Of a stretch of 64,000 nucleotides of DNA, positions 11,781 through 61,987 are shown piece after piece (within the stretch, counting starts at the first letter, position 1; each line of letters begins with the position of its first letter). Location: IMG/VR virus record IMGVR_UViG_3300042013_000065; one strand, 5' to 3'. Source of the stretch: a virus. The notes beneath the pieces are model-generated. The model saw only the letters and a list, made by a program, of their open reading frames with translations. It was not told the DNA's origin and made no database searches. A program made the position numbers and the translations under genes.

Positions 11781-12050
11781 TTAGTCTCGCTGAAGTTTGT
11801 TCGTGTACATGTAGAGCTTCATTCGTGCGATAACTTCAGCACGATAATCGCGATCAAGAATCGTCATGCCAAGCGCGGTTTCCACCAGCTCCAGAATCTG
11901 AAAATCCCACCACTTGTTCAAACGTGCCTGATCAACAAATTCGCCCCAGCTAATGCGAGCGCCGCTATCGACAATTTCCTGAATGGCTACGTCGAGTGGC
12001 ATACCGTGCGTGGCCTTCAGCTCAAACAGCTTCTTACCTGAAAAGATCAT
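11781..12050 (-). CDS. Small protein resembling an alanyl-tRNA synthetase helical-domain fragment
   Basis: SGKKLFELKATHGMPLD...DSGARISWGEF vs AlaRS G..AF.LYDTYGFPLD...E.G..VD..GF. Confidence 0.65.
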   Translation of the reverse strand: MIFSGKKLFELKATHGMPLDVAIQEIVDSGARISWGEFVDQARLNKWWDFQILELVETALGMTILDRDYRAEVIARMKLYMYTNKLQRD

Positions 12051-12062
12051 TTTGATTGCCTG

Positions 12063-12800
12063 TTAGGGTACGGTGTACTCAATAACCTTTACAGTTTCTT
12101 CACTGCACAAACTGTCGTAAAAAGCGTGTGCAGAATGCTCTTCCTGAATGGCTTTCTTCAGCGTGAGTGTACGCGCTGTGACAATGCAACCCGGTGTGAG
12201 GAATGCCCGCAAACCAAACGGTGCGTAACAGTCACGTACACCATTCGGGAACACATGAAAACCGGAAGGAAGTTCACGGCCACGCTCTTCAACGTTGGCG
12301 ACACGCAGGTCAAAGCCATTGTAAGAAGCGTTGCCAATTTCGTCGAACGTGTCGTCTTCGTTGAACTGCGCGAAAATGGTACGGAATTTTGGAATCAGAC
12401 CGAAGAGCGGAACGCCGCCAATTTCAACGCGAACAATAGGACTGATTGTGTCGAACTCTTCAACGAAACGTGCGCCGATGCAATCCAGTTTCTGCATCGT
12501 TGTAACAGCCTCACGCAGCAGCAAAACTTTTGTTTCGAACTTGACCTTGTGTTCGAACATGTTGCGTACAACGAAATCGTAAACGTCTTCGAAAGAATCT
12601 AAAAACTCCATGTTGTCTTGGTAGTTTCCATTACCTTCAAAACGGATGCGGGCCTTGCCGTAAATGGTCACGTTCCCGTTCGGTGTTTTCAGGAAGTGAC
12701 GGCCAACGTCGCAGAAGTAATTGTCTTCTTCTGCTTCACGGAAATAAAACTTGCCGCCCAGCAATGATTCCAATGCAGCCAACAGCTTTTCAAAATCCAT
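12063..12800 (-). CDS. Hypothetical protein
   Basis: 245-aa ORF, phage-like codon usage. Confidence 0.7.
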   Translation of the reverse strand: MDFEKLLAALESLLGGKFYFREAEEDNYFCDVGRHFLKTPNGNVTIYGKARIRFEGNGNYQDNMEFLDSFEDVYDFVVRNMFEHKVKFETKVLLLREAVTTMQKLDCIGARFVEEFDTISPIVRVEIGGVPLFGLIPKFRTIFAQFNEDDTFDEIGNASYNGFDLRVANVEERGRELPSGFHVFPNGVRDCYAPFGLRAFLTPGCIVTARTLTLKKAIQEEHSAHAFYDSLCSEETVKVIEYTVP

Positions 12801-13489
12801 TACAGCACCTCGAAATCAACAAACTTGCGGTAGCGGGGCGTCGTCAATTCACGGTACGTATCGTTGTTGGGCAACGGCTTGTTCGTGATAATCGTAGTGA
12901 TGAATTCATTGATGTTGTAGCGGATATTGCTACCCAACAAACCCTGAATATCGTCACACATTGCGAAGCCGTTTTCGTCTACTTCCATCGAGCCTGTTTC
13001 GCCCGTAGGCCATTTGCGGCGATGAATGTATTCAGGACGAATCGACCAGCCGTCACCAGAACCGTGCGCCTCATGGTGTGCATGCTCGCCGTACATGGTG
13101 AACGCATACAAAGCCACACCAGTGTCATGCAAAAAGAACGTCGCTTTCGGGTGACATTTTTCTACGCTTTCCAACACGCTGATTTGCAGCGCAGGATTGA
13201 TCGCGGCCAAATGTTCTGCAATTTCAGCACGCAAAGCAAGCACGTTTTTATCAAAGTCGATTCGTGCTTCGTCAGCCAGTTTAACCAGCTCTTCGTAGCA
13301 AATCGTCCAGTCTCCATTTTCCGTTTCCAGAAAGTCAGTGCGTTCCGGCGTCTGGATAAACAGGCTGTCTTCGTTGTTTGCCATTTCGATAATTACGTGA
13401 GGGCCGTCGATGCACATTTCATTATCACGCATGCCAACTGCAACGCCGATGTAGGCGCTTGCCTTAACCAGAAATTCTTCGCGATTCAT
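12800..13489 (-). CDS. Hypothetical protein
   Basis: 229-aa coupled ORF. Confidence 0.7.
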   Translation of the reverse strand: MNREEFLVKASAYIGVAVGMRDNEMCIDGPHVIIEMANNEDSLFIQTPERTDFLETENGDWTICYEELVKLADEARIDFDKNVLALRAEIAEHLAAINPALQISVLESVEKCHPKATFFLHDTGVALYAFTMYGEHAHHEAHGSGDGWSIRPEYIHRRKWPTGETGSMEVDENGFAMCDDIQGLLGSNIRYNINEFITTIITNKPLPNNDTYRELTTPRYRKFVDFEVL

Positions 13490-13977
13490 TTACCGTCTCT
13501 CGCTTTGTTGTAGGCCACGCGCATTGGCGTATGCAGGTCTAAATGTGGGCCGAGCATCGTGATACCTATTTCGCATTTCCAATCGTTCACGTAAAGCCGT
13601 GCAATGGCTTCTTTCGTTTCGAAGTCGGCAATGGTGATGGTCAGGCTTTGTCCTTCAGTCCCATGCACTGCAAAAGTTTTGAAACGTTTTGGGAAGTGCG
13701 GACGCATCAGAACATAGCGCTCTTTAATAGCCGTAGCCATCACGCGATAGTCACCGTGAGAATTGATAACACGGCGGCGCAGCTCTTTGAAATCAATTTC
13801 ATCGTCTGCATAAAAACGCAGCTTTTCCGAACCCGTGAACGCGATGTCAACCAAACCATTTCGACCAAATTCCGCACGTAGATACGGCGTACAAATGATC
13901 ACAAAGTTTTCGTTAGATCGGCGCAAGAACTTTGTTGGCAGGAGCTGGCAAAATTGAGTAATCAGGTCTTCGTTCAT
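13486..13977 (-). CDS. Hypothetical protein
   Basis: 163-aa coupled ORF. Confidence 0.65.
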   Translation of the reverse strand: MNEDLITQFCQLLPTKFLRRSNENFVIICTPYLRAEFGRNGLVDIAFTGSEKLRFYADDEIDFKELRRRVINSHGDYRVMATAIKERYVLMRPHFPKRFKTFAVHGTEGQSLTITIADFETKEAIARLYVNDWKCEIGITMLGPHLDLHTPMRVAYNKARDGK

Positions 13978-14290
13978 TTTCGTAGCCTATCTGGATTTCC
14001 AACAGGCGGGCACGCATCCGGTCAGCGATCAATTCGCTTTCCGCGTTATCCCAACCAGTTTCAATTTTGAATTTGTTGTTCGTGAAATAGTGTGCCATAA
14101 CAGCGACACGCCGGGAAATATTTATCACACGAACACTGGCCCACGTTACGTTAGCGATGTTTGGTTCGTTACCGATTCCGTTTGTTGTACTTTCCACATG
14201 AACACTGGTGGCGCCCGACGCTTTTACCGCTTCGTGCAAAGCAACCTGCGCACTGTTCAAATAAATATCGTGGGGCGTCATCCAGTTCAT
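13913..14290 (-). CDS. Hypothetical protein
   Basis: 125-aa ORF with AAGG RBS. Confidence 0.6.
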   Translation of the reverse strand: MNWMTPHDIYLNSAQVALHEAVKASGATSVHVESTTNGIGNEPNIANVTWASVRVINISRRVAVMAHYFTNNKFKIETGWDNAESELIADRMRARLLEIQIGYENERRPDYSILPAPANKVLAPI

Positions 14291-14298
14291 GTTTTACC

Positions 14299-14730
14299 TT
14301 ACGCGAGTTTGCGAATTTCAGTCAGGAAGTTGTGATGCTCACGGCTCAACTTGTCACGAGCTTCTGCAAGGGTGAACCACTTGCGTTTACGTACGGTTTT
14401 TTCATCCCAATGTTCTGCTTCTTCACGGAACTCCATAGCGTACATATCGACGATCTGGAAAGCAGAATCTTTGATGTAGGTGAACTGCCCAAGTTTCTTG
14501 GTCACTTTACCGTACACGCCCGCTTCTTCCATGCACTCTTTTGCCGCGTTTTCTTTCTTGGTGATACCCTTTTCAACACCACCTTTTGTGAAGCCCCACC
14601 ACGCGCCTTTCTTCAGCTTCTTGACCAACAACACTTGGCGCACGCCGTCAACATCACGGTAAGGAATGCAGCCAGATTGAAAACGCGTTTTGGTTGGAAT
14701 GTTACGAGCGATTGCGATTTGAACTTGCAT
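14299..14730 (-). CDS. Nudix hydrolase (Ap6A/DIPP-like)
   Basis: Nudix box KGGVEKGITKKENAAKECMEEAGV; SGCIPYR; W.E...RKRKWF. Confidence 0.9.
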   Translation of the reverse strand: MQVQIAIARNIPTKTRFQSGCIPYRDVDGVRQVLLVKKLKKGAWWGFTKGGVEKGITKKENAAKECMEEAGVYGKVTKKLGQFTYIKDSAFQIVDMYAMEFREEAEHWDEKTVRKRKWFTLAEARDKLSREHHNFLTEIRKLA

Positions 14731-14784
14731 TGTAAACCCTGTGCAAAAGTTGGGAAAACTCTGTGTCTCCCCTTCCCTTTTAAA

Positions 14785-15678
14785 TTACCCTACGCACATA
14801 GGTGCAAGCATGCTGATTTCTGCAAACTCACGTCCATTCGGTTCGAAGTCGTCGGGCAACCGGAAAGCGAAAACTGTTTCTGTAATGTCTTTGGACAAGT
14901 GATAGTCGTACAGACCATTCACAACGCCGAACAAGTCACGTGCAACAACTTGTTGAATCTTCAGCGTGTCGATCATCATTACTTTACAGTTTCTGAAACC
15001 GAGGATTGCCTTGTCAGCTTCGTCACCGGGGTAAACTTCGTACCATTCCGTTCGGGTTTGATGCTCGCCGGTAAGCGTGTGTGGAAAACTGACCGTTGCT
15101 TTGCGCAAACAGCCTTCGTGTCGATGTTCAAACCACGGCATAACTTCGTCGAGGAACCGTTGTGGTTCAGCCACGGGATCGTAAGGCAACCGGAACGAAC
15201 GACGACGGGTAACGCGGCCTTGCTTGGCAATCAAAAACAGTTCGTTGTTATCCAGCAAACGAACGCGGAAACTCAGCACGTCCACGTCGTTCCAGATTTC
15301 AGAATTACGCAGGCTCAATTCCATATCTTTCTGACGAACACTGACAACGACTTTCGTTTCAATACCCTTCTGCTCAATGCGCAGGTCATACGGTGCGTCT
15401 TTGTACTGGTCAACAATGAGGTTTGCCAGCTTGGTGTTAATGCCCACGTATTTTGCAGCGTGTTTGTTTGCCTTGCTAACCAGCAGCGCGAGTGCAGTAG
15501 GGTCGATGTCGATAGGGTGAACATCCGTACGGTGGTAGCCATCAACACGTACAACGACGCCAGCCAGTCTCATTTCGTCAAAGGAAAGTTCTACAAAATC
15601 TTTTTCGTAATACTGATCGTAGGTCTTCTTAGCACCGATGGCATCCATCAATTCTACGAACTTTTCGAATTCAGTCAT
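14785..15678 (-). CDS. Hypothetical protein
   Basis: Start taken as MTEFEKF at 15678. Confidence 0.7.
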   Translation of the reverse strand: MTEFEKFVELMDAIGAKKTYDQYYEKDFVELSFDEMRLAGVVVRVDGYHRTDVHPIDIDPTALALLVSKANKHAAKYVGINTKLANLIVDQYKDAPYDLRIEQKGIETKVVVSVRQKDMELSLRNSEIWNDVDVLSFRVRLLDNNELFLIAKQGRVTRRRSFRLPYDPVAEPQRFLDEVMPWFEHRHEGCLRKATVSFPHTLTGEHQTRTEWYEVYPGDEADKAILGFRNCKVMMIDTLKIQQVVARDLFGVVNGLYDYHLSKDITETVFAFRLPDDFEPNGREFAEISMLAPMCVG

Positions 15679-16468
15679 TGCAATCTTCCTCACGCACACG
15701 GAACACTTTCGGCTCACGTACTACAAGCGGCGTTAAAGTTACATCGTTTGCAAAGCTGATTACGAACATGTCCTGCTTTCGCGAACGACCTTCGAAATTC
15801 AGAATGAGTTGCATGTTTTCATCGTCGCAAACTTCACGAACTACACACGACTTTTTCTCGATACCGATGCACGGATTTTCCAGCATGACTGCGGCGAAAA
15901 CGTGTGGTTGTTCAGTGGTGATAATCTTGGTGCCTTCACTGATCAATTGCCCACGACGATATTTATGTGCGTGCTGGCAAGCCTTGACGATATCTTCTGG
16001 AACTTCCAGTTCTTCGTCGAGGTCAGGGCACCAAATATCCATAACCAATTTTTGGTCACGGCCTTCGTGATCAAAAGAAGCCTGTAGCGCGAAAAGATTG
16101 GTGCCATGCAACGTGAACGAAGCGCGTGCGCGTGACTCGACTTTAAGATCCAGTTCCAACCCGCGCTGACTCAGAATGCTTTGTACATTCAAGCAAAACG
16201 CTTTGAATTTATCCATGCAGTCGTTACGAATTTCGATGCAGGTTTCAACGTGCTTTTGCATGTACCGTAGATTTTCTACGCGTTTCCCGCGCTGTACGTT
16301 GTCGCGAATCATTACGGAAAAACGACGTGATGTATTGCGCAGACCAACAGCAGGTAAGGTCACACGGATATCGCCGAGCGCCAATGTGGTGCCGTTGACT
16401 TTCGAGAAACCTTTTTCAAGCAGATATGCTTCTGCCTGTGCGCACAATTCTTTAATTCCGTTATCCAT
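15671..16468 (-). CDS. Hypothetical protein
   Basis: 265-aa coupled ORF. Confidence 0.7.
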   Translation of the reverse strand: MDNGIKELCAQAEAYLLEKGFSKVNGTTLALGDIRVTLPAVGLRNTSRRFSVMIRDNVQRGKRVENLRYMQKHVETCIEIRNDCMDKFKAFCLNVQSILSQRGLELDLKVESRARASFTLHGTNLFALQASFDHEGRDQKLVMDIWCPDLDEELEVPEDIVKACQHAHKYRRGQLISEGTKIITTEQPHVFAAVMLENPCIGIEKKSCVVREVCDDENMQLILNFEGRSRKQDMFVISFANDVTLTPLVVREPKVFRVREEDCND

Positions 16469-18741: not shown

Positions 18742-18744
18742 AGC

Positions 18745-19949: not shown

Positions 19950-19950
19950 G

Positions 19951-20456: not shown

Positions 20457-20459
20457 AAA

Positions 20460-21444: not shown

Positions 21445-21445
21445 G

Positions 21446-21874
21446 TCACGCACCGAACGGCTCCAAATGTTTATGCAGGCAAGTGATACAACGGCGTCCG
21501 TTATCGTATTCGAATTCCGAATCTGTACGCTCCAAATCCGCCCACACAGCGCCGTCTTCAACGTTGAGTTTTACCACCAGCCAAACGTGGCCTTCAAACA
21601 TTACCGGAATGTTGATTGCGTACGGAACGCGTGGGCCTTGTGCAACCACGATTGCGCCGCCCGGTTCATCCGACAGCAACGCTTCCAACAAACCGAAGTT
21701 TTCCGCCTCTTCCAACTTCAGGCACGCTTCGATATAGGTCAGCAAATGACTGTTCATGCTGCGGTGGTTTACACGCGCAAAAGCTTCAATCTTTTCACGC
21801 CAGCCGTCCGGCAAACGAACAACGAATTTGTCGGCGGTGCGGCTGTTGTACAAGGCTTGTTTAACTGGTTTCAT
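21446..21874 (-). CDS. amrZ: AmrZ (AlgZ)-like Arc/RHH transcriptional regulator
   Basis: MKPVKQALYNSRTADKFVVRLPDGWREKIEAFARVNHRSMNS closely matches the Pseudomonas AmrZ N-terminus (MRPLKQA..SSRTADKFVVRLP.GMRE.IAEVAR.HHRSMNSE). Confidence 0.88.
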   Translation of the reverse strand: MKPVKQALYNSRTADKFVVRLPDGWREKIEAFARVNHRSMNSHLLTYIEACLKLEEAENFGLLEALLSDEPGGAIVVAQGPRVPYAINIPVMFEGHVWLVVKLNVEDGAVWADLERTDSEFEYDNGRRCITCLHKHLEPFGA

Positions 21875-22518
21875 TTCTTTGTCCGTTTGGCGAGTTTTGG
21901 AACGGCCTGCATTGCGTTGGTAACGAGTTCGACTTCTGCATCACTCAGCAATTGGTGCATGGTGGCCGGTGTGCCGCGCTTGAACATGAACTTGATGATT
22001 TCAGCAGCACGAACAGACAAACGTTCCGCAAGAATCGCCACGGTAATATCTGACCTTTCTTCCGGTCGCTCTTCTGTCGCTGCACCTACAACGTGATTTG
22101 CAGCAGCGTCGATTGCAGCCAGTTGGCGCAACAGCATGTCTTTTTCCCAATTGTCGCCGAAAAAGAATTTGTTCAAACCTTTGATGTCGTGGCCGTCCAG
22201 ACTGAATTCACCGTTCACACGATCAACGCTATCGAGCGAGATATGTTCCATTGCGTGGTAAGCGGCTGCAACTTCCATCACGTCGATGCCGTAATACTTT
22301 GCCCAATTGTTGATCGTGACATCACTGAATGGGAAATACCCGTTGCCGGGAACTTTACGTTCTTTGCCAGCCTGCACAGCGCGATCTTTTTCAATGCCTT
22401 CGCGAATGTAGCGCAGCGTCAGTTCATGCAAACCTTTGAATGTGCCGTCGCTGAATTTTTTCAGCTCTTCAAACAGGTCATCCGGCACACGTGGGCGGTA
22501 AGGAGTTGGACGATTCAT
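21871..22518 (-). CDS. RHH domain fused to translation initiation factor IF2 N-terminal (IF2_N) domain
   Basis: N-terminal YRPRVPDDLFEELKK...LHELTLRYIREGI (RHH); C-terminal ITVAILAERLSVRAAEIIKFMFKRGTPATMHQLL (IF2_N). Confidence 0.75.
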   Translation of the reverse strand: MNRPTPYRPRVPDDLFEELKKFSDGTFKGLHELTLRYIREGIEKDRAVQAGKERKVPGNGYFPFSDVTINNWAKYYGIDVMEVAAAYHAMEHISLDSVDRVNGEFSLDGHDIKGLNKFFFGDNWEKDMLLRQLAAIDAAANHVVGAATEERPEERSDITVAILAERLSVRAAEIIKFMFKRGTPATMHQLLSDAEVELVTNAMQAVPKLAKRTKK

Positions 22519-22902
22519 TTAGATAATCCCGTAGTCGATGGCGACAGGCTTGCCGTTAATCATGCCAATGGAACACACTTTGTTTTCCACAATCTTTTTG
22601 ATCGTGTCTTTGTTGAGTCCTTCGACTTGTTCAACAAGCTTCCAGAATTCTTCAACATATGCGAAACGATCTTCGGCGTCGTAGCTTTTCACGTCAGCAC
22701 GCGGCATGACGATAACGATACATCCCCACGAACGCCACAGCACAGGAGCCAGCAGCGGCGTATCCAAATGGCTGAACGAATATTCTGTGTCATTGCACAA
22801 AATACCTTGCAGGAAATTCCGCCAGTGCTTAATCATGGGAAACTTGATCGCGTACTTACCAATCAGCAAAACACTTCTGGTAGAGCCGTGCTTCCATTTC
22901 AT
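22519..22902 (-). CDS. Minimal protein-kinase-like protein
   Basis: GSTRSV (G-loop), YAIK, N..E (helix C), IVMPR, ENK..SIG, AIDYG. Confidence 0.65.
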   Translation of the reverse strand: MKWKHGSTRSVLLIGKYAIKFPMIKHWRNFLQGILCNDTEYSFSHLDTPLLAPVLWRSWGCIVIVMPRADVKSYDAEDRFAYVEEFWKLVEQVEGLNKDTIKKIVENKVCSIGMINGKPVAIDYGII

Positions 22903-26445: not shown

Positions 26446-27033
26446 TTACTCCCGCGCTGCCATACGCCGTCTGTGACGGGCATCTTCTTCGTCTTTCAAT
26501 TTCTGCCGCTGTGCTTCTTCTGCATCACGTGCAGTGACGTACGAATACGACGTGTGCAGACTGACTAAACAAATCATGGCGATAACGCAGGTAATGATTG
26601 CGAAAAAGATTCGCACCAAATCGAAAAAGACTTTGTAGTTTTCCATGCCTTCCGCATCATGAACACCAGCACGCGAAGCCAGCATGTTGACCTGTACCTG
26701 AATGCCATGACCGCTCTTTTCACGCAGGAATTTTTGATACAAACCGCCGCTCATTTCATACGTGTAAAACTTTCCCGTTTCATTATCGCGAAACGTGCCT
26801 TCCCACTGCTCACGACCGGTTCCGTATTTGCCTGTGTTGTATGGCCATGCGTCAACGATGGTCGCATCACGAACGGACTTGGTATTGACCGTTTCGTAAA
26901 AGCTGACGCGTTCCTGCGCGATGCAGAAAATCGCTAGAGCAAGGCACGCAGCAACGAACCAGTAAAACGGTGCGCCGTAGTAGCCGAAATATTTATAGTT
27001 TTGTGGAACCTTTGGTTCGTCTTCACCGTACAT
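26446..27033 (-). CDS. Two-TM membrane protein
   Basis: Hydrophobic segments flanking a soluble loop. Confidence 0.7.
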   Translation of the reverse strand: MYGEDEPKVPQNYKYFGYYGAPFYWFVAACLALAIFCIAQERVSFYETVNTKSVRDATIVDAWPYNTGKYGTGREQWEGTFRDNETGKFYTYEMSGGLYQKFLREKSGHGIQVQVNMLASRAGVHDAEGMENYKVFFDLVRIFFAIITCVIAMICLVSLHTSYSYVTARDAEEAQRQKLKDEEDARHRRRMAARE

Positions 27034-27841
27034 TTTCGTTTTCCTTCAGAGCTTCTTCGTACCGGGCACCGCACGCATCCAACTGTTTCATTGCTGCTTT
27101 ACGGCGCTTCTTGATCGACTTCAATTCTTGCTTGCAAATCTGCGCGTGGGTTTTGCCATCTTCCCGTGCAAATTTGTAGCGAATGTCTAAGCCCCACGCC
27201 AGCGCAGAACGTACAGGGTTTCTGTCCCACACATGCGCTTCGTCAATGACCATATGCGAGCGCATCATTTCAGAATAGTTATCCTTCATGATTTTTATGC
27301 CACGCGGATTCGTAATCAACGGTCGAAAGTTTTTCAGAGTGTGCGCTTCGATGTCGAAAGCCACATCACCGTGAATGCCAATGCCGAGGTCGAGCGGTTT
27401 GCAGCTATCGAGTTCCATAACAACATATGGCAACGTTTGAACATGACGCAGCGCTTCTTCTTGATGCGGATAAAGACGCGGAACAAAGCGTGGCATGTCT
27501 TTCATTGCCCGCATGCGTGCGACTTCGCCTTCAAAAATGTACGGCAGGTTGTCGTGGCCTACAACAATTGGCAACAGGGCGTGCATACGCTCTTCAGCAG
27601 CCGAATAATCAAACGTCATTTCGTCATGAAAACCCCGGCGAAAATCTGCAAGGTGTTCGTATGGGTTGAACGGTGCACGCACGCGGTCGATTTGTTCACG
27701 CGTGGAGAAAACAAGTTCTGCGTCTGGATACTTTTCGCGGATGGCGATCATTGGATCAATGCCGGTTGCTTTCCTGCTCGCTTCCAGCACTTCGCTATCC
27801 AGCAAAACAGCGTTACCTCTGGTGCGGCTTTTGTAAGTCAT
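27023..27841 (-). CDS. Hypothetical protein carrying isolated PolA/SF2-helicase/exonuclease-like motifs
   Basis: FDYSAAEERMHA, LYPHQEEAL, VAFDIEA, MVIDEAH. Confidence 0.6.
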   Translation of the reverse strand: MTYKSRTRGNAVLLDSEVLEASRKATGIDPMIAIREKYPDAELVFSTREQIDRVRAPFNPYEHLADFRRGFHDEMTFDYSAAEERMHALLPIVVGHDNLPYIFEGEVARMRAMKDMPRFVPRLYPHQEEALRHVQTLPYVVMELDSCKPLDLGIGIHGDVAFDIEAHTLKNFRPLITNPRGIKIMKDNYSEMMRSHMVIDEAHVWDRNPVRSALAWGLDIRYKFAREDGKTHAQICKQELKSIKKRRKAAMKQLDACGARYEEALKENENVR

Positions 27842-28485: not shown

Positions 28486-28992
28486 TCACTTTTTCTTCTT
28501 TTTCTTTTCAGTCAGCTTGTGTGCTTTACAAGCTTTCCAAATATCTACGCCAATCATGCTGTCACGAAATTCCGTTGTCAGAATGCCGTACTGATCACCG
28601 CCTTTACCTGCTGCGTTCACGCCCCAAAAATCATCCCACTCAGCAAGGTGCGAAAGTTTTGCTTTTCCCGTATTCATCAGCGCAATCAAACGCCACGGGT
28701 TTTGCATGTACGATTCGCGAATGCCGATACGCATGATGTCGAAACGTTCAACGTCATGTTTGCTTGAAGGTTTGCCACCAGCTTTCTTGCTACCAAAATG
28801 CTTGGCTTTGTACGGATCGAACGCTGCGAGAATTTTCCCGCGCAATTCTGTTTCCGTTTTATCCAGCTTTCGGAATTGATAATACGCTTCGATGCTTTTG
28901 TACACCGTGCCTTTATACATAAAAGGCGCAGGCCACATCGCCGAGAAAATTTCATTCTCGTATGAATTAAACAGAATTACCTGTTTACTCAT
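28486..28992 (-). CDS. NADAR (YbiA-like) family protein
   Basis: FS.M.P.PF...G..Y.SIEAYYQ..K...I.....P..AK..G...L..TG...L....D.FWG. Confidence 0.85.
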   Translation of the reverse strand: MSKQVILFNSYENEIFSAMWPAPFMYKGTVYKSIEAYYQFRKLDKTETELRGKILAAFDPYKAKHFGSKKAGGKPSSKHDVERFDIMRIGIRESYMQNPWRLIALMNTGKAKLSHLAEWDDFWGVNAAGKGGDQYGILTTEFRDSMIGVDIWKACKAHKLTEKKKKKK

Positions 28993-29771: not shown

Positions 29772-30554
29772 TTACACCACGTGACCGGGCAGGTAACGCA
29801 GCAGATCGTATTTCGGGTTTGGAGCATCAGCATTACACAGATGGAAAGCAAACAGCAGCGACCAGCTTTCGAAAGTCACGTTCGGGTAAGTTGCGCCGAT
29901 GTCTTGAATGCGTACAGGCGGAACGAAGTCGATAACTTCTTCGCCGCTGGAAACGGTCACGCCTTCTTTCAACTTGATGCGCAGGGCCATTGCAAAATGC
30001 AGACGGCCAACCGGATCGCTGTTGTCGAAAATGATACCTTCGAAATGCAGCGTGGCAATATTTGCAAAAATCTGCAAATCAGTCGCCACGTCGCCGCTCA
30101 GGCCGACACGAATGCCATTCACGTAAACGGCGCATTCTTCGAAGAATTCGCGCACCACGTTATGCAGAACGGTTTGGCGCAAATCAATTACGCTTTTGTG
30201 TGCGACGATATCAACGAAGTCGGTGTGCCCACCAACGCCGATGCTGCCACGGCCTTGCAAATCGCTTTCGCCATTGCCTTCGCGAGAACGCATGTAAGGG
30301 TTGATCGTGTCGTCGTAGTTTTCCACAACGAAATAATTCAACCACTGCGAATAGTCGCGGTCGCCTTTGTGGCTTTCGCCCCACGGACGGTATTCGTCGA
30401 GGTGGTTACGCTGGCGAATAACCACACCGCTTTGAACCAGTGTCAGAAACTCTTCGAAATTGAATTGCGGATTGAAGCCTTCGCGAATTCCGATTTGCAG
30501 AAAAGTTTCACGGCTCAGAGCCAAGATGAATTCCGGGTATTTGTATTGAGACAT
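29772..30554 (-). CDS. Nudix-fold phosphoesterase (COG4112/YmaB-like)
   Basis: Y.R...GE..L.G..SIGVGGH...RE..EE...DNS.PVG..H. Confidence 0.8.
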   Translation of the reverse strand: MSQYKYPEFILALSRETFLQIGIREGFNPQFNFEEFLTLVQSGVVIRQRNHLDEYRPWGESHKGDRDYSQWLNYFVVENYDDTINPYMRSREGNGESDLQGRGSIGVGGHTDFVDIVAHKSVIDLRQTVLHNVVREFFEECAVYVNGIRVGLSGDVATDLQIFANIATLHFEGIIFDNSDPVGRLHFAMALRIKLKEGVTVSSGEEVIDFVPPVRIQDIGATYPNVTFESWSLLFAFHLCNADAPNPKYDLLRYLPGHVV

Positions 30555-30569: not shown

Positions 30570-31052
30570 TTATTGGGGCATGATGTAGTTTTGAATGGAT
30601 ACAGCGTGAATGCTGTAGTTCTTTACAGTCTCGCCGAGTGGGTCATTGATGTTCACACCCATACGGAAACGCTTACCGTTATTCCCGGCGCCGAAGGTGT
30701 TCATTTCAACGGCACACATCAGCGGCGCATCCAGAAAGATTGCGATGTTCGTTCCAGCTTCACCGGTAGGGTTCAGCTTTTCCAGCAGCCGTGGCAAAGC
30801 ACGTGGTGTAGTCAGATGCGGGCCAGCACGCAACGCAGCTTCTGCTTTTTCTTTGTCGAGGTTTTCGTCGCTAACGTCGATGCCTTTCGCAATCAAAACA
30901 CGCTGTGCAATTTGCAGCAGATTGTCTTCGTCGTTCACGAAAATTGTTTCGTGTCCGGTCTTCTCTTTGTGCGCCATCGCTGCCGCAAGAATCGAAGCAG
31001 TTTTACCGCTGTGCGTATGCCCGTTAACGATCAATTCTGGATAGCGAATCAT
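30570..31052 (-). CDS. Truncated RecA/DnaB-like P-loop protein
   Basis: LIVNGHTHSGKT (Walker A), IFVNDED (H1a-like), IAQRVL, IFLD (Walker B); only 160 aa. Confidence 0.55.
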   Translation of the reverse strand: MIRYPELIVNGHTHSGKTASILAAAMAHKEKTGHETIFVNDEDNLLQIAQRVLIAKGIDVSDENLDKEKAEAALRAGPHLTTPRALPRLLEKLNPTGEAGTNIAIFLDAPLMCAVEMNTFGAGNNGKRFRMGVNINDPLGETVKNYSIHAVSIQNYIMPQ

Positions 31053-50629: not shown

Positions 50630-51820
50630 TTATTTTACGTTTACCCATTCCTTGTTGTCCTTATCCCACAACAAAGTATTGGAACTTTTCATTTGGATGA
50701 ACTGACTGCTTGGAGCGTCGTAAACGCGCCAGCCGCCTTTGTCGAAGTTGACCACCCACGGCGCGTTGCTGTTTTCACGAACGTACAAACGACGAACGTG
50801 TACAACGGCGTTTTGATCAATGCAAAACATGAACCGGCTGAACTCGACCGTGCCGTCGTGCGAATACGCCATGACTTGCACGAAATAACATCCGTCAACG
50901 AATGCGAGTGGCGGCAAATCCCCCGGTGCATATTTTCGGAAGTCGAAAACCACAACCTTCGATTCGGATGCGCCCGCCTGAATTGATTCTTCGTTGGTGA
51001 TACCTGCGTACAACGGATGGTCGCCGTAGTTCGCACGAATGAAACCAACGTTCACAGGTTGCCGGTCGTAAAGTCCTGTGAAGAACACACCGAATTCTGC
51101 CGCGACCATGTTAGCCGTTCGGTAGAAAGCGGAATAAGAACCGTCAACGGCTTCGTCAATATCGTCGATATCAGGAACGCCGTGGTCAGTGATAATTATT
51201 ACACCGTTGCCAGCTTCACGATACTGCACAAATGCTTGCACAGCTTCTTTCGTAATCAGTGGAACACCCGGATAATTCGAAGACATCAGAACCACACAGC
51301 AGAACTGATCAAGCGTTGCCATGCTTGGATTCAGAACGCCGCCGTAGTCCGTAACCGAAAGGAACGAAGCGTTGAAACCAGCAGCCGCACAAACGCGCTG
51401 CATACTGATTGCGAAGTCTGTACCGCGTGAACCTTTCAGCGTGTAGTTTGCTGCATCGTCCGGCGCATCGCCGAGGAACAAAACGTTTCGAGCTTTACCC
51501 GGCTTCGCGCAGAAATTGAGCGCGTTAAACAGGAACTTGAAACTGCCATTCAGTTGAGCAAAACCTGAACCGGCTGGCGGCGCATACACGTTGTAAAACT
51601 TTGGAAAACCACCATCGAAAACAGCATTGCCGCGACCATCTTGTGTCACTGCCAGAAACGGATTCGGCGGCTGCAACTGATCATAAGCAATGTATTGAGC
51701 GAGCGTCGGCGCCCGCCCGTTGATTGTGTAGGAAACCCACGCAACGCTTGGGTCAACAATCCACTTCGCTTCTGTTTTCTTTTTGTATGTTCCTTGTGCA
51801 ATGTCAAAATTGACTTTCAT
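50630..51820 (-). CDS. Putative virion/tail-associated protein of jumbo phages
   Basis: PNPFLAVTQDGRGN.VFDGGFPKFYN and IITDHG motifs recalled from jumbo-phage structural proteins. Confidence 0.45.
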   Translation of the reverse strand: MKVNFDIAQGTYKKKTEAKWIVDPSVAWVSYTINGRAPTLAQYIAYDQLQPPNPFLAVTQDGRGNAVFDGGFPKFYNVYAPPAGSGFAQLNGSFKFLFNALNFCAKPGKARNVLFLGDAPDDAANYTLKGSRGTDFAISMQRVCAAAGFNASFLSVTDYGGVLNPSMATLDQFCCVVLMSSNYPGVPLITKEAVQAFVQYREAGNGVIIITDHGVPDIDDIDEAVDGSYSAFYRTANMVAAEFGVFFTGLYDRQPVNVGFIRANYGDHPLYAGITNEESIQAGASESKVVVFDFRKYAPGDLPPLAFVDGCYFVQVMAYSHDGTVEFSRFMFCIDQNAVVHVRRLYVRENSNAPWVVNFDKGGWRVYDAPSSQFIQMKSSNTLLWDKDNKEWVNVK

Positions 51821-52221: not shown

Positions 52222-52232
52222 GACCGAATTCC

Positions 52233-53125: not shown

Positions 53126-53133
53126 GTACCCCT

Positions 53134-53715
53134 TTACAGTTTTGATTCGGTGGTGGGCAATCCCAAAACCGTAGACGCATGCGCTAACGCGGCGTCAACA
53201 TCGGCACCGGGCGTCATGAGCTGTTCTGCGCATTCAGTTAGGCCCAAGCGTTTACGACACTCCGCGTCTTCAGCCAGAACGGCCTGTAGGATAGGCTCAG
53301 GGATCGTTAGCCCTAAACGCGCCTCCTTCTCTGCCTGCAATCGCTTATCGCGCTCTAAACGCCGTACACGCTGTTTGGCGGCGATTGCGTGCCAGCGGCG
53401 GTGCATGATCATGTCGCTAGGCGTTTCGAAGTGGAAAGGCCCGGTGCCGTCTTCGGTCAGCAGATTGCCGAACGTGTTGAAACGATGGCGCGTGATTTTG
53501 TCCTTGAGGTGCAAAACCAATTCGACGTGTTCAAAACTGATTTTGTCTTCACCAATCAACGTGCGCAAAACGTCGAAGGCGAATTCGTTGGCAATGGTTA
53601 TGTTGCCTTCGGTCTTGCCTTCCAGTTGGTTAAAAATCCGAATGGCCTGCGAATCATTCAGCGCAAGATTACAGCCGAACGTTGACGCTTCAACAATGTA
53701 AGTGACGGTAATCAT
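53134..53715 (-). CDS. Hypothetical protein with a DUF3696-like segment
   Basis: ANEFAFDVLRTLIGEDKISFEHV...RFNTFGNL. Confidence 0.45.
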   Translation of the reverse strand: MITVTYIVEASTFGCNLALNDSQAIRIFNQLEGKTEGNITIANEFAFDVLRTLIGEDKISFEHVELVLHLKDKITRHRFNTFGNLLTEDGTGPFHFETPSDMIMHRRWHAIAAKQRVRRLERDKRLQAEKEARLGLTIPEPILQAVLAEDAECRKRLGLTECAEQLMTPGADVDAALAHASTVLGLPTTESKL

Positions 53716-53724
53716 GGCAACACC

Positions 53725-56174: not shown

Positions 56175-56511
56175 AATTCACCCCGTGTACAGCAATGTGT
56201 TTTTCGGAACTGGTCAGCGAAGTCTGCAACGCTTCATGATCGTCGCAAATTTCGTCGAGCTGTTTTAACACGGACAACACTTCTTCCCGGCACGCTTTAA
56301 TGCCGGGATTGCCGCCCGCTGCTTCCCACACGTCTTTGATGGAAATGTAATCGGCGTGCAAAACTTTCTGGAACGCAACCCACTCAACCTGCACACTCGG
56401 GTTAGTGAATTTGTCGTCGGCATACGCAAAGATGTTTGCGACTTTGGTTTCGGTGTTGGCGTACTTTGCTTTGTACACCGCCATAAACATTTCACGAACT
56501 GTCTTATACAT
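56158..56511 (-). CDS. Hypothetical protein
   Basis: GGAG RBS; WEAAGGNPGIK. Confidence 0.65.
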   Translation of the reverse strand: MYKTVREMFMAVYKAKYANTETKVANIFAYADDKFTNPSVQVEWVAFQKVLHADYISIKDVWEAAGGNPGIKACREEVLSVLKQLDEICDDHEALQTSLTSSEKHIAVHGVNYAVGS

Positions 56512-57106: not shown

Positions 57107-57774
57107 TTCACCACCTCGGCAGTACGGCTGATAATGAATGCGAAAGGCATCCGGTAGGTTTTGTAATCCTTGATGCTCAGCGTGTCTTCCAGAATCGAAG
57201 TTACCACACCTTCTTTCAGGCCCATCTTTTTCACGCTGGAAAGACTTTTGCCATTCAGCACGGTCGCCAATCCAACGCGGTCGCGAATCTTCAATTCCTT
57301 ATCAATCGTTTTCGTGTACTCCACGTCACGGCTCAATACGGAATAAAGCAGTTGGGCAAACGTTTCGTTCGGCGTGAAGAAAATATCGTTTTCGATATCG
57401 TGCCAGCCTGCGAAGTCAGCGTCGAACATCGGCGCCATTTTGCAACCGCCTGCATTCATGACGCGCCTGATACCGTCTGTGAGGCTCTGTGCGCCTTTCT
57501 CCAGCGATTTAACGTAGGACGGCGCCACCAGTGCATAAAGTTTGTCGTCTCCCTGCTTCCAGCCACCACGGGGCGCCACGTCCAGTTCCCAAATGACCAT
57601 GATGTCTTCGGCACAGGTACGGCGCATGCGCGCAAGGCTGGTAGGCACGCTACCGAATTCGTATTCAGCCGCGCCCATGTAATCGTAATAGCAGACTTCA
57701 CTAATGCCGCTAAGATTTCCTGCCCAGCGCACGGCGATACGAGAAAGGAGATACGGCGAATATTTGGTTTTCAT
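57103..57774 (-). CDS. Conserved hypothetical phage protein
   Basis: DYMG.AE.EFG..P.SL motif. Confidence 0.65.
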   Translation of the reverse strand: MKTKYSPYLLSRIAVRWAGNLSGISEVCYYDYMGAAEYEFGSVPTSLARMRRTCAEDIMVIWELDVAPRGGWKQGDDKLYALVAPSYVKSLEKGAQSLTDGIRRVMNAGGCKMAPMFDADFAGWHDIENDIFFTPNETFAQLLYSVLSRDVEYTKTIDKELKIRDRVGLATVLNGKSLSSVKKMGLKEGVVTSILEDTLSIKDYKTYRMPFAFIISRTAEVVK

Positions 57775-57783
57775 GGTGACGCC

Positions 57784-58275
57784 TTACTTTTTGTCGTGTT
57801 CGATTTGAACAGGGGTTTGGACTTCGGAATATTCAGCGTCGATAACTTTGTCGTTTTCGTCGGTGAACGCCAAATCGTCGTCTTCGTCGTCGGGATCATT
57901 CGGATCGTAATCGTTCGGGTCAGGAACGGCGTCGGTCGGAACGAATTGTGAATCCTTACGCACGGTGAACGTCCAGCCGTAGAAATACGAATTGCCACGG
58001 CGGATAGGATCTTTGCTGTAATCGGAACCGAGCAAGAAGAACCACATTTCCCGGTAGGACTCCCAAAAGAGATTCCATTTCAACGGACGCCCGTTGATCT
58101 TGGCTTTCTTGTAGGAAAACAGTTGATAGATGAAAGCCTGAATGGTGGCCTTCACGAACGCCCACACGATTTGCAAAACGTAGTAGGCAACTGTGCACAC
58201 AACAACCAGACCGACCAAAGACAGAATGATTATGTGCCACGGGTAGGGTAAAAGATTGGTATCGAGCATTTTCAT
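57784..58275 (-). CDS. Membrane protein with acidic tail
   Basis: N-terminal TM; DPNDYDPNDPDDEDDD. Confidence 0.65.
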   Translation of the reverse strand: MKMLDTNLLPYPWHIIILSLVGLVVVCTVAYYVLQIVWAFVKATIQAFIYQLFSYKKAKINGRPLKWNLFWESYREMWFFLLGSDYSKDPIRRGNSYFYGWTFTVRKDSQFVPTDAVPDPNDYDPNDPDDEDDDLAFTDENDKVIDAEYSEVQTPVQIEHDKK

Positions 58276-58562
58276 TGTTCCTCTGAATCAAGGTAGGAAG
58301 ATAATTCCCACGTTAAACTTTCGGCGCTGACAAAATCGTTGTAGATCATTGCGTCAGCGATTGCGTTAACTTTCGGTTTCAGTTCTTCCACTTTGCGGGC
58401 CACTGCCATTTCAACATAGGGCCGCGCAAGTTCTTTCACGCGCTCTTCAGTCAGGCGCTTTTCGAAACCGCCCAGCAGGGCAAGGGCAATCAATGCGAAA
58501 GCAATCACCCCGGCAATCGTGCACAGGATGATTTTTTGGTCTGGTGCGAATTTGGTTCCCAT
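58272..58562 (-). CDS. Single-TM membrane protein
   Basis: IILCTIAGVIAFALIALALLGG. Confidence 0.65.
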   Translation of the reverse strand: MGTKFAPDQKIILCTIAGVIAFALIALALLGGFEKRLTEERVKELARPYVEMAVARKVEELKPKVNAIADAMIYNDFVSAESLTWELSSYLDSEEQ

Positions 58563-58565
58563 ACG

Positions 58566-59027
58566 TCACCAGAAAATGTCTGGCTGATTGATGCCTTCGA
58601 CAATCGCATCCTTCACGCGCTGGATACGTGCCATTTCATTGGAGAATGCCGCGATCATGCCGACACCGTACGAATCCGCTTTGCTGTAGGTCAGGGCCAA
58701 ACGGTTTTCATGCGATTCCACGTAGCCCATCAGATTCGATACCGCGTAAACGCCGATATGATCGTGGCCGATGAATTCTGCGTAATCCAGCACGCGAGAA
58801 ATAATTGTGGTAACGAGAAACGCGTCTTGGGTTTCTGCTTTGTCTGCGTCCAGCTTGTGACCGAGAATGGTCATGTCGAAATGTTGTGCGCCGCCCTTCA
58901 CCATCAAATGCAAACGACGGATAGGGCCAATGAGCGCCAACGTCAAATCGGCAATGATTACTTTATCCATCGGGATAATTGCCAATGCAGCTTGATGGCC
59001 TACTTTGAGGACGATATGGGTGTTCAT
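58566..59027 (-). CDS. Hypothetical protein
   Basis: AGGAG RBS. Confidence 0.7.
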   Translation of the reverse strand: MNTHIVLKVGHQAALAIIPMDKVIIADLTLALIGPIRRLHLMVKGGAQHFDMTILGHKLDADKAETQDAFLVTTIISRVLDYAEFIGHDHIGVYAVSNLMGYVESHENRLALTYSKADSYGVGMIAAFSNEMARIQRVKDAIVEGINQPDIFW

Positions 59028-59046
59028 GCGGGTGTTGCTCCTGATT

Positions 59047-59088
59047 AAAAAGTGAAAGCGGCCCGTTCTATTTGAGGCCGCTTTTCAT
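59047..59088 (-). terminator. Rho-independent terminator
   Basis: - strand tgaaaagcggcc...ggccgctttcac followed by ttttt. Confidence 0.75.
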
Positions 59089-59109
59089 TGTCCTGTACAA
59101 ACAGCGGAT

Positions 59110-59385
59110 TTAGAACCGCTGATAGGTACGAACGAGATTTTGTAGCGTGCGATCTTTTGCGTGCACGGTATTGGCGGTGCCATCCACAATAACGAACGGC
59201 ATTTTGGTACTCAGGCCCACGCGATACATCAGGTGTTCAACCTTCGCTTGCGTGTTCAGGCCGTATTCGTGTTTGTATTCTTTGCACTCCATTGTCGGCG
59301 GTGCGCGGAAAACAATACGAATACCTTCCTGCTTGAAAACGGCTTCTTCGACTTCGCCGAGTGTGGACATTTTTTCTTCGGACAT
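59110..59385 (-). CDS. Conserved hypothetical protein
   Basis: E..VF..EGIRIVFRAP...IVDG...TL..L..TY. Confidence 0.65.
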   Translation of the reverse strand: MSEEKMSTLGEVEEAVFKQEGIRIVFRAPPTMECKEYKHEYGLNTQAKVEHLMYRVGLSTKMPFVIVDGTANTVHAKDRTLQNLVRTYQRF

Positions 59386-59397
59386 TTGAAACCCTTA

Positions 59398-59988
59398 TTA
59401 CGCGAGGCAAATAACGTAAGCGGAGGACGATGCAGTCAGACGGATTGCACCGGGAAGAATTTTGCCGCGTACCGATTCGCGAACAATTACACGCGCACCG
59501 GCCTTTTTGGAAAGCAGGGTTGCCAGCTCTTCAACGCATTGGCACTTGCGCATTTTCTTCTTCAGCTTTTTAACGCTGTAATCGACGTGCATGATTTCAG
59601 CCAGCGCCATGTTCACGCTGAAATGCAAACCAGTCCAGTGTTGCATGCGAATCAGGAAATCTTTCACCGACTCGCTGATACGTTTTTCTTCAGCCGGAAA
59701 GTGGTCAACGTACGAACTGCAACGACGGCAGCATTCATTAATGACGCAATCGCATTCGTCGTTGTCTTCGCGTTCGTCGCGTTCGGCACCTTTACGGGCC
59801 TTGATAACTTTCGCAATGCCATCACGGAATTGCTTTTCGCGTTTGGCACTAACGTCGTCCAAACCGTCTTCCAACGAACCGTTATCGTCAACGGCTTCAG
59901 CGAACAGCTCGGCCACCTTTACGATACCGATTTCGTCCAATGCAGAAACGAGCGCTGCGTAAACGATACGGTTAGCTTTTGTACCCAT
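59398..59988 (-). CDS. Hypothetical protein
   Basis: AAGGA RBS, start MGTKAN. Confidence 0.65.
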   Translation of the reverse strand: MGTKANRIVYAALVSALDEIGIVKVAELFAEAVDDNGSLEDGLDDVSAKREKQFRDGIAKVIKARKGAERDEREDNDECDCVINECCRRCSSYVDHFPAEEKRISESVKDFLIRMQHWTGLHFSVNMALAEIMHVDYSVKKLKKKMRKCQCVEELATLLSKKAGARVIVRESVRGKILPGAIRLTASSSAYVICLA

Positions 59989-60034
59989 GGTCAAACTTCC
60001 TTAGATGCGTGATGGTCTAAATAGCGGGCACAGT

Positions 60035-60066
60035 AAAGCCCGGACTCCAAGGCTACAGAACCGGGC
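60035..60066 (-). terminator. Possible terminator hairpin
   Basis: gcccgg...ccgggc stem with a short T run on the - strand; large loop. Confidence 0.4.
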
Positions 60067-60074
60067 ATACCGTG

Positions 60075-60350
60075 TCAAGCCGTGTAGGCCCAGCCTAGAA
60101 GGTCTACGGCGCTATCCGGCCCGCCCGTCAGGGTACGGGTGATTGTGTCGCCGTCGTGCATACGGCTAAAGCAGGAACCATCCTTTTGAAGTTCGCACGA
60201 CAGAACAAGCGAACCACGATTCCAAACGTGTAAGGTCATTGAGTTGCCCGCGTCGATAACGGATGCAATGAAACCCCGTTGCGTTGCCAGCAATTCAGCT
60301 TTCCGCATTACGTTGAAAACCAGATTGCGTTCAAGTTTGTTCTGTCGCAT
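60075..60350 (-). CDS. Hypothetical protein
   Basis: GAGG RBS. Confidence 0.6.
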   Translation of the reverse strand: MRQNKLERNLVFNVMRKAELLATQRGFIASVIDAGNSMTLHVWNRGSLVLSCELQKDGSCFSRMHDGDTITRTLTGGPDSAVDLLGWAYTA

Positions 60351-60363
60351 ACGAACCTCGTTT

Positions 60364-60624
60364 TTACAATTGCGTCAGTGTGACATCAGCCACCAGCAAA
60401 AAGGTGGTGCCGTATTGTTTCACGTTAGACCAACCCAACGTCAGCATGAATTCAGCAATATGCTTCGCGACGATTTCGTCTACACGCGATTTGTAAGACA
60501 GCACATCAACGCCTGCCGTGTCGTTGTAAATCGAAACGGCTTCTTCTGCGCTCAAAATGATTGCAGGGGTATTCGGGGTTTGATCTTTTGGATCGGGGAG
60601 ATTGCTTGCGGAAAATTTACGCAT
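60364..60624 (-). CDS. Hypothetical protein
   Basis: Start MRKFS with AGGA RBS. Confidence 0.55.
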   Translation of the reverse strand: MRKFSASNLPDPKDQTPNTPAIILSAEEAVSIYNDTAGVDVLSYKSRVDEIVAKHIAEFMLTLGWSNVKQYGTTFLLVADVTLTQL

Positions 60625-60625
60625 G

Positions 60626-61192
60626 TCAGGATTCCTGAAGAGATTGAATGAGACGGCGTTCCACTTCGGAGAAACGAGTGTCGCCAATGTTGAACCAGCC
60701 TACAGCATTTGGGTAATCAGCAAGTTTGCCGCCATTCTGCTGAAAACCGCCCATGAAAACCGTGCGCAGATTCACACCGTGTTGTTCTTCACGTTGAACA
60801 GCCAGTTCACGTGGTGCAGCGGTGATAACACCGACAGCATTCAGGATCAACGCAAATGCTTCACCGGCAGTTTCGTGTTCTTCTGCTTTGGTGCCGGGGA
60901 AGAACAATTGCCCTTCACGTTCCTGCGCCATGATGAAACGTTTGTCATGCGAGATAATCAGGCCGATAACGAAGGTCTGTACGAATTCATCGCGACGTTC
61001 GGCGAGCTTTGCTTCCAGCTTCACAACGTGTGCACGGGTTTTTGCCATACGGCGATTGTGCAAAGCGTTTTGCGCCAACCGACGGTCATTGAAACGTTCC
61101 CACACTTCAATCGCCGCTGGTGGAATTTCGGCGTCGAGCGGAATGTCGAGGAGCATACGCAGCGCGTAGTTTCTGTATTTGTACGAAAACAT
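60626..61192 (-). CDS. Degenerate Nudix-fold protein
   Basis: VIGLIISHDKRFIMAQE....FFPGTKAEEHETAGEAFALILNAVGV: Nudix frame lacking RExxEE. Confidence 0.55.
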   Translation of the reverse strand: MFSYKYRNYALRMLLDIPLDAEIPPAAIEVWERFNDRRLAQNALHNRRMAKTRAHVVKLEAKLAERRDEFVQTFVIGLIISHDKRFIMAQEREGQLFFPGTKAEEHETAGEAFALILNAVGVITAAPRELAVQREEQHGVNLRTVFMGGFQQNGGKLADYPNAVGWFNIGDTRFSEVERRLIQSLQES

Positions 61193-61987
61193 TTAGAGAG
61201 CCGCCATGAATTTTGCGAGGGTTTCGTTTGCGAAGTCGGAGAAACCCGGCTTGTTCTTTTGCAGCGGATGTACATTCGCTACCGGGTTTGCAGTGCGCAG
61301 CGCTTCGAACGTCAGTTCAGGACACAGTTCAGTTTCGAATCTGCCGTCGATGATTGCCCATTCGTAAACACTACGAACTTTTTCATGCGAAGGCGCATCG
61401 AGGCGATTGCCCATGTAATCCGCCATGGAAAATGTCGTTGGCAACATGCCGTCTTCCAGCATTGCGCGAATCATGTACAGGCGTGCAATGTGAACTGCGC
61501 GTGGTGCCAAGATGTCTGCCATTTCACCACCGCGACGATGGGTCATGCTCAGGATCGTACCGGTTACGGATTCCCACATCAGCGAAGGGTTGAAATAGTG
61601 CGCAACCGCTTCCTGCAAATACTTGCCATATTCGCTAACGGAAAACTGCTTTGGACTCGAAACGATTTCCAGTGCACCGACCGCGCTGTTCATTGCCATA
61701 CGCAGGAATTTTTCTGGCGAATAAAAACGAGTGTGAATGTGTTTGCCGTCGATCAGCACAGTATCCACGTGCGAATTGCGCGGGAACTTGTACACGTCTG
61801 GCTTCAGGTCGAAACCGACAACGGCGTACGCAGGTTTTTCTTCGCCGAGGGTGCCGAATGCAGTTGGGCCAGTGTCCGACACAAACAGAGTACGTACATT
61901 CAGTTGCTGACTGATTGCTTCAAAGATTTCGCGACGTTGTTCCATGATCAATTTCCTTCGTGGTAAGTGAATTTGCGGGTGTACCAA
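61193..61987 (-). CDS. Degenerate Pol-beta-superfamily nucleotidyltransferase (YcgL/COG3541-like)
   Basis: TGPTAFGT..E.PAYAVVG vs GS.AYG...PDSD.D.RG; EKFLRMA.....ALE...SP. Confidence 0.6.
   Translation of the reverse strand: MVHPQIHLPRRKLIMEQRREIFEAISQQLNVRTLFVSDTGPTAFGTLGEEKPAYAVVGFDLKPDVYKFPRNSHVDTVLIDGKHIHTRFYSPEKFLRMAMNSAVGALEIVSSPKQFSVSEYGKYLQEAVAHYFNPSLMWESVTGTILSMTHRRGGEMADILAPRAVHIARLYMIRAMLEDGMLPTTFSMADYMGNRLDAPSHEKVRSVYEWAIIDGRFETELCPELTFEALRTANPVANVHPLQKNKPGFSDFANETLAKFMAAL

Follow-up and report, generated by a model that had tools for sequence, protein, structure and literature searches.

The question raised by this locus is whether eight small genes scattered through a 64,000-nucleotide stretch of virus record IMGVR_UViG_3300042013_000065 (hereafter the window, meaning the whole stretch analysed) form one coordinated arsenal of decoys, or are unrelated genes gathered by a reader's eye. 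The source is a ~312-kb soil jumbo phage, with Pseudomonas as the probable host; the closest isolated phages, both only distantly related, are HRDY3 (314 kb) and Lu11 (281 kb), jumbo phages of Pseudomonas. From ~9 kb to its end, the window is a single long minus-strand array of small genes, with ~106 minus-strand open reading frames (ORFs) of at least 50 amino acids (aa) and ~17,000 codons in total, most of whose products are orphans, and the eight genes are dispersed through this array. A first-pass annotation had grouped them as stand-alone fragments and dead copies of essential enzymes. The best explanation is quite probably an ordinary block of unrelated, individually selected genes falling into four classes; the 'library' is that reader's collection from an orphan-rich block, with no positive evidence for an arsenal. 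The eight genes are as follows.

11781..12050, minus strand: g11781, 89-aa protein of a jumbo-phage family, residues 4-40 resembling an AlaRS hairpin (hhalign, PF01411)
21871..22518, minus strand: g21871, 215-aa protein with a C-terminal IF2_N module, residues 156-205 (Pfam IF2_N)
22519..22902, minus strand: g22519, 127-aa kinase-like 'half kinase' with N-lobe, hinge, catalytic loop and DYG (phrog_4301, 4.8e-18)
27023..27841, minus strand: g27023, 272-aa ORFan with short PolA motif A, superfamily 2 (SF2) Q-type, ExoI and DEAH-like strings (coding-type codon usage)
30570..31052, minus strand: g30570, 160-aa protein, putative compact RecA/DnaB-superfamily P-loop ATPase core (motifs, Atlas, hhalign)
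53134..53715, minus strand: g53134, 193-aa protein, N-terminal ~100 residues homologous to an HRDY3 hypothetical protein (BLAST)
60626..61192, minus strand: g60626, conserved 188-aa protein with a helical N-terminal 70 residues (co-translated with the upstream g61193)
61193..61945, minus strand: g61193, 250-aa homologue of RlaP-family (Pol-beta type) nucleotidyltransferases (Lu11/HRDY3 alignments)

All eight ORFs were found on the minus strand where the first-pass annotation had placed them. Their junctions to neighbouring genes range from -4 to +15 nucleotides (nt), with ATGA or TAAATG at five of the eight, and leave-one-out codon-usage scoring gave positive values in all eight minus-strand frames (+0.10 to +0.28 per codon), against negative ones in each long antisense ORF. 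True genes on the plus strand were considered and rejected: antisense ORFs reach 454 aa but have negative codon scores. Because of these negative scores, the three long antisense ORFs listed here (325-454 aa) are read as shadow ORFs.

60602-61966, plus strand: long antisense ORF, negative codon score
29781-31124, plus strand: long antisense ORF, negative codon score
52724-53701, plus strand: long antisense ORF, negative codon score

A length-based gene caller would wrongly choose such shadow ORFs opposite the real minus-strand genes. Full-length orthologues of constant length were found for five of the eight genes. The ratio of nonsynonymous to synonymous substitution rates (dN/dS), which like synteny was based on one 2.1-kb Joint Genome Institute (JGI) contig (L008), was 0.19 for g61193 against its L008 orthologue, in line with purifying selection, and 0.23-0.28 for g60626. 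The constant-length orthologues and these ratios bear out the proposal that the genes are not decaying pseudogenes.

Within the window, all-against-all BLASTP on one set of non-overlapping ORFs (longest-first picks) gave no similarity among the eight, and their interpretation as paralogues or as carriers of a shared module was rejected on this result. Their phage ranges also differ, the kinase-like family counting 1,541 clusters and reaching T4-like phages among its 77 phage records, the AlaRS-like family 31 jumbo-phage records, and the others close relatives only. The span would then be an ordinary accessory-gene block of ~100 small, packed minus-strand genes, mostly orphans, in which the eight would be independent, individually selected single-domain proteins and no system. 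Its four classes would comprise likely working mini-enzymes (g22519, a kinase-like ATP-binding enzyme, and g30570, a RecA/DnaB-type ATPase), one true pseudoenzyme (g61193, RlaP-like, with the metal-binding Asp pair destroyed), borrowed binding modules (g21871, with the IF2 N2 subdomain, and g11781, with an AlaRS tRNA-recognition hairpin), and genes whose named folds did not emerge (g27023, g53134 and g60626). The description as fragments and dead copies stood for dead g61193 and for the IF2_N and AlaRS pieces, but not for g22519 and g30570, whose motifs are intact, nor for the three genes of the last class; the folds named for the other five were confirmed or weakly consistent. We infer all biochemical roles of the eight, and set them beside gene reality, conservation and fold or motif status, which were established directly.

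The two genes of the first class look like working enzymes and not dead copies because every catalytic motif in them is invariant. For g22519, which had been called a minimal kinase, the kinase fold was confirmed, and kinase-like motifs were found. Its AlphaFold model reached a predicted local distance difference test (pLDDT) score of 94.8, and all top 50 Foldseek matches in the PDB were kinases (best E = 6.4e-4), the top matches including Lpg2603, TTK, CDC7, Rio2, PknB, Bud32 and Ark1. The VIA structure search aligned 110-122 of the 127 residues, from N-lobe to DFG, again to kinases (Z 5.8-7.8; OspG and ArkI included), and viral models annotated as kinases matched at up to 1e-10. No Pfam kinase model detects g22519, and a PDB sequence search with its family gave no match. 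HMMER returned 1,541 cluster representatives, nearly all of 110-140 aa with the domain reaching the C-terminus, and homologues of phrog_4301 type were present in 77 phage records. Across 137 aligned family sequences, K20, G33, N37, E40, K108 and D123 never vary, and conservation is 90% or higher at E106, S111 and the terminal tyrosine-glycine; the distances between these positions parallel those separating the beta-3 Lys, helix-C Glu, catalytic loop and DFG in protein kinases.

The chain of g22519 stops right after the DFG-equivalent, so that of the bilobal kinase-superfamily fold the N-lobe and catalytic core are present and the C-lobe past DFG is absent. It has the same fold from N-lobe to DFG region as Shigella OspG, Rio/Bud32, ArkI and T7 gp0.7, and shares with minimal kinases the invariant beta-3 Lys, helix-C Glu and DFG-type Asp at kinase-like spacing; unlike them, it lacks the activation segment and the C-lobe helices, and its family length of 110-140 aa falls short of the 169-173 residues of the smallest kinases that the fold searches matched. 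Where kinases have D-x-K-x-x-N in the catalytic loop, g22519 has E-x-K-x-x-S, with Glu106 at the Asp position and Ser111 at the Asn position, while the Lys, Glu and DFG Asp are invariant. From motifs and model, g22519 looks like a working ATP-dependent enzyme rather than a dead decoy. In the T4-like Escherichia phage JS10, a homologue (2483-2851) immediately precedes rnlB (RNA ligase 2). Among the fold matches is ArkI, an archaeal tRNA kinase, and RNA-end phosphorylation is a candidate role.

The second likely enzyme, g30570, had been described as a DnaB-like N-half; a P-loop and a RecA-like core were recovered, but the protein seems to be neither a half nor dead. Its orthologues (49-91% identity) are all 160-162 aa long and show no variation in Walker A, Walker B, the acidic residue that follows strand 2 or two distal Arg. 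In the Atlas, the neighbours of its model (pLDDT 0.68) are stand-alone ResIII/DEAD domain-1 proteins, DnaB_C and RecA, with template modelling (TM) scores of 0.53-0.60 (0.58 for DnaB_C), and hhalign matched RecA residues 65-210 over 127 columns (E = 8.4e-4), matched RadD at the P-loop only, and matched DnaB over a weak C-terminal stretch only. The Pfam DnaB_C match (PF03796, E = 0.2) fell below all Pfam cut-offs, and DnaB was the best but insignificant PDB sequence match (E = 0.18). Like RecA, DnaB and KaiC cores, g30570 has Walker A and B, the post-strand-2 acidic residue and a distal Arg-containing segment; unlike these and SF2 domain-1 proteins, it is 160 aa long and carries no N- or C-terminal accessory domain. 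Motifs and model together give weak but consistent support for a complete compact RecA-superfamily core, and g30570 is likely a working RecA/DnaB-type ATPase. The gene directly downstream encodes a protein that could be a partner of this ATPase.

29772-30554, minus strand: 260-aa protein, full-length match to phrog_8902 (3.4e-44, unknown function)

The claim of a dead nucleotidyltransferase held for g61193, whose start is better placed at ATG 61945 (2 bases after the upstream stop) than at TTG 61987. The protein aligns end to end with Lu11 gp337 and HRDY3 XDJ15400, which score above the PF10127 cut-off of 23 (34.2 and 30.4 bits, respectively) and keep GS...SDxD; g61193 itself falls below this gathering score (14.7 vs 23 bits). 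In g61193 and its 70%-identical orthologue on L008, Ser is changed to Pro and the Asp-x-Asp pair to Pro and Tyr, leaving one invariant Asp of three and no GS motif. Enzymes of the RlaP family extend damaged RNA 3' ends by one or two nucleotides and need three strictly conserved Asp (PMC12776372), and RlaP is common in jumbo phages (PMC7824862). With RlaP (Lu11 gp337, T4 NrdC.11, PfRlaP), g61193 shares its size and the helical C-terminal half; unlike RlaP enzymes, it and the L008 orthologue have lost the Ser of GS and retain just one of the three catalytic Asp, and because of this loss g61193 is classed as a pseudoenzyme. Read from its sequence and the dN/dS of 0.19, it is a pseudoenzyme maintained by selection, and the decoy idea fits it well as it does no other of the eight. 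It would still bind a partner or the 3' ends of RNA but add no nucleotides. The zero-gap junction between g61193 and g60626, and the gene pair itself, are kept in L008. A viral-contig scan with g61193 gave no relatives, no RNA ligase adjoins the gene, and the only PDB match of the RlaP-like alignment, a DHX58 helix, was rejected as spurious.

Of the two borrowed modules, the IF2_N module of g21871 was confirmed. Residues 156-203 scored 36.2 bits against IF2_N (PF04760; gathering cut-off 25.3) and matched P. aeruginosa IF2 residues 266-314 in ribosome structures (PDB 7uiu_x, E = 7.8e-7); over IF2 residues 267-312, the N2 subdomain that directly precedes the G domain, the module shows 48% identity. 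As in Pseudomonas IF2, the N2 module is ~50 residues long, but in g21871 it stands at the C-terminus of a protein without a G domain or any other IF2 part, and the N-terminal part shows a putative ribbon-helix-helix-like pattern. The only 'phage' match of g21871, full-length IF2 in the unverified record OQ572408.1 ('UNVERIFIED Pseudomonas phage Y6'), was set aside: at 703-3138 this unannotated 42.6-kb record holds a bacterial IF2 with all domains, probably host DNA in the record.

The AlaRS helical motif named for g11781 was weakly confirmed, as a sub-threshold yet reproducible hairpin similarity. Against PF01411, g11781 scored 13.2 bits (cut-off 30.3, E = 0.032) over ~37 residues at profile positions 382-418, and all five family members examined matched the same part of the profile weakly (best E = 1.1e-4); with hhalign, residues 4-40 aligned on E. 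coli AlaRS 391-427 (E = 4.7e-4). The class II core and full profile match that identify AlaRS (PF01411/TIGR00344) are absent from the 89-aa protein. Thirty-one jumbo-phage records match g11781 at 44-49% identity over its full length, and a relative, gp181 of Serratia phage Moabite, carries the annotation 'alanyl-tRNA synthetase, IPR018162, HHpred 88-89'. g11781 carries the same AlaRS-like hairpin as gp181 and its relatives ('alanyl-tRNA synthetase' or 'alanine-tRNA ligase'); none of this family is a synthetase, the ~37-residue helix-loop-helix alone being common with AlaRS, at sub-threshold scores. The alignments weakly suggest an AlaRS-like tRNA-recognition hairpin in g11781. In Klebsiella phage FBKp24 (1489-3261), an AlaRS-hairpin member lies two genes upstream of the RtcB tRNA-splicing ligase, a neighbour that hints at a tRNA-related role of the family. 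A PDB search with the g11781 family returned only designed helical repeats, discarded as spurious. Both g21871 and g11781 would bind what their modules bind in the host, the ribosome or tRNA.

The remaining three genes did not yield the folds named for them. For g53134, no DUF3696 or other match was obtained in Pfam, NCBIfam, PHROGs or PADLOC at E<=1, and the DUF3696-like piece was not recovered; the protein does match Pseudomonas jumbo phage HRDY3 (tblastn E = 0.02, pairwise BLASTP E = 2e-9). The dead Nudix proposed for g60626 likewise was not upheld. Its five orthologues (58-99% identity) are, like g60626, all exactly 188 aa long, and Pfam PF00293 gave no match with any of the six family sequences at a cut-off as loose as E<=10. 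Residues ~71-134 align sub-threshold on the Nudix-box region (YtkD E = 0.07, NUDT18 E = 1.9, PADLOC PDC-S07 E = 0.005; by hhalign, MutT E = 0.009 and RppH E = 0.065), all in one register, and the catalytic Glu and Arg of the box GX5EX7REUXEEXGU are all replaced in the best registers. The AlphaFold model from six sequences was unusable (pLDDT 47), and Foldseek on it returned noise. Judged from the alignments, a Nudix-like fold in g60626 is slightly more probable than its absence. For g27023, the PolA, SF2 and exonuclease strings are present as described, but no domain, family, fold or homologue stands behind them: no Pfam, PHROG or NCBIfam family at E<=1 and no PADLOC match were found, there is no GK[ST] Walker A, searches including the viral-contig scan gave no phage or viral relative, the Atlas model (pLDDT 0.43) has no feature or structure neighbours, and no domain-level profile or fold match to PolA, SF2 helicases or DEDD exonucleases was obtained.

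The window has a steady skew and a GC (guanine plus cytosine) content of 48-51%. Four of ~40 proteins tested scored above Pfam thresholds (a Laminin_G_3 tail-type protein, IF2_N, NADAR and an Arc-like repressor), and PHROGs adds two virion structural proteins in the window, one of them listed here with two further neighbours.

50630-51820, minus strand: virion structural protein, beta-propeller, 396 aa (phrog_11065, 3.7e-98)
28486-28992, minus strand: NADAR-domain protein, 168 aa (Pfam 3.5e-13, above cut-off)
21446-21874, minus strand: Arc-like (AmrZ-type) ribbon-helix-helix protein, 142 aa (Pfam Arc 1.8e-14)

The virion protein sits mid-array, inside the claimed library, and because of its position the small-gene block is not purely early or accessory. 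NADAR enzymes take ADP-ribose off guanine in DNA, and the NADAR gene is plausibly, from its sequence, a real counter-defence gene against DarT-type toxins in the same block. The start of the Arc-like gene overlaps the stop of g21871 by 4 nt, and g22519, g21871 and the Arc-like gene form a tightly coupled trio. No tRNA genes were found within the window, and neither megablast of 12 kb nor tblastn of a 492-aa neighbour protein gave a match in phage records.

Several observations weigh against reading the span as an ordinary block of unrelated genes. AlphaFold models were obtained for two of the eight genes, one of them the unusable model of g60626. Five independent sub-threshold Nudix alignments of g60626 share one register, and this gene as a possible second pseudoenzyme would strengthen a reading of g61193 and g60626 as a dead enzyme pair. 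In g27023, four motif patterns co-occur as in none of 2,000 shuffles and in no other of the 106 genes, the shuffle figure not being a fair probability because the patterns were written after the match was seen. The Q-type and DEAH strings of g27023 are collinear with E. coli RadD, and a possible reading is therefore that the protein represents motor domain 1 of an SF2 helicase in degenerate form, its P-loop destroyed, and not a concatemer of unrelated motifs. The Q-type motif, a stretch located where Walker A would be expected and DEAH come in helicase order, the patterns occur together in this gene alone, and phages commonly encode stand-alone helicase domain-1 proteins of 130-200 aa; but the spacing is ~35 residues shorter than in RadD, Pfam ResIII and DEAD give no match even at E<=1, hhalign against the g30570 family gives none either, and the low-scoring Atlas model is without neighbours. 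We regard the degenerate helicase as a doubtful possibility.

Far less probable is the arsenal itself, in which coordinated dominant-negative fragments and dead enzymes would titrate host essential complexes or bait immune sensors. One clear pseudoenzyme under purifying selection (g61193), two isolated binding modules from translation proteins and a bona fide counter-defence-type NADAR gene in the same block speak for it, but two members carry full catalytic motif sets, three named folds were not recovered, the members have no sequence, neighbourhood or distribution in common, PADLOC gave no significant match to defence-system proteins (only the sub-threshold Nudix-like match of g60626), and the grouping was picked by eye out of ~106 genes. 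Phage mimics and sponges (Ocr, Tad1/Tad2 and Acb2-type) are small proteins that work by binding, not catalysis; none of the eight is similar to them in sequence or fold, and two look catalytically competent. The arsenal is thus very improbable; if true, such a coordinated set of dead-enzyme decoys would amount to counter-defence of a new kind. A narrower proposal, that g21871 through its IF2 N2 module, g11781 through its hairpin and dead g61193 (perhaps with g60626) act by competition at the ribosome, tRNA or broken RNA ends, is unlikely as a whole, though such a role is plausible from the sequences; such binding would divert translation or obstruct RNA-targeting immunity or repair. It draws on the 48% identity of the g21871 module to that of Pseudomonas IF2, on the conservation of the AlaRS-like family across jumbo phages and its place two genes from RtcB in FBKp24, on the loss of the g61193 Asp pair under a dN/dS of 0.19, on the conserved zero-gap junction of g61193 and g60626, and on the action of RlaP, common in jumbo phages, on damaged RNA 3' ends (PMC12776372, PMC7824862). 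Against it, modules of 37-50 residues may be re-used for unrelated partners, and the AlaRS similarity of g11781 is sub-threshold. A combined version, with g61193 and g60626 as a pseudoenzyme pair binding RNA 3' and 5' ends and, with g21871 and g11781, forming a set of non-catalytic binders directed at the host translation apparatus, and separately with the half-kinase family as the smallest active kinase-like class, is improbable. In it, the conserved, co-translated pair, one RlaP-type and one Nudix-like and each devoid of catalytic residues, would bind these RNA ends and leave them unprocessed, thereby protecting cleaved tRNA or phage RNA or hiding the ends from RNA-sensing immunity.

The reading as unrelated, individually selected genes leaves the single proteins as the findings of this block. 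RlaP has only recently been characterised as an RNA 3'-end repair enzyme family, and g61193 would add to it a selected, catalytically dead RlaP-type protein; g21871 is a captured IF2 N2 module. In phrog_4301, a ~120-aa phage family now annotated as 'unknown function', g22519 points to a kinase fold cut at the DFG motif, with its key residues invariant.

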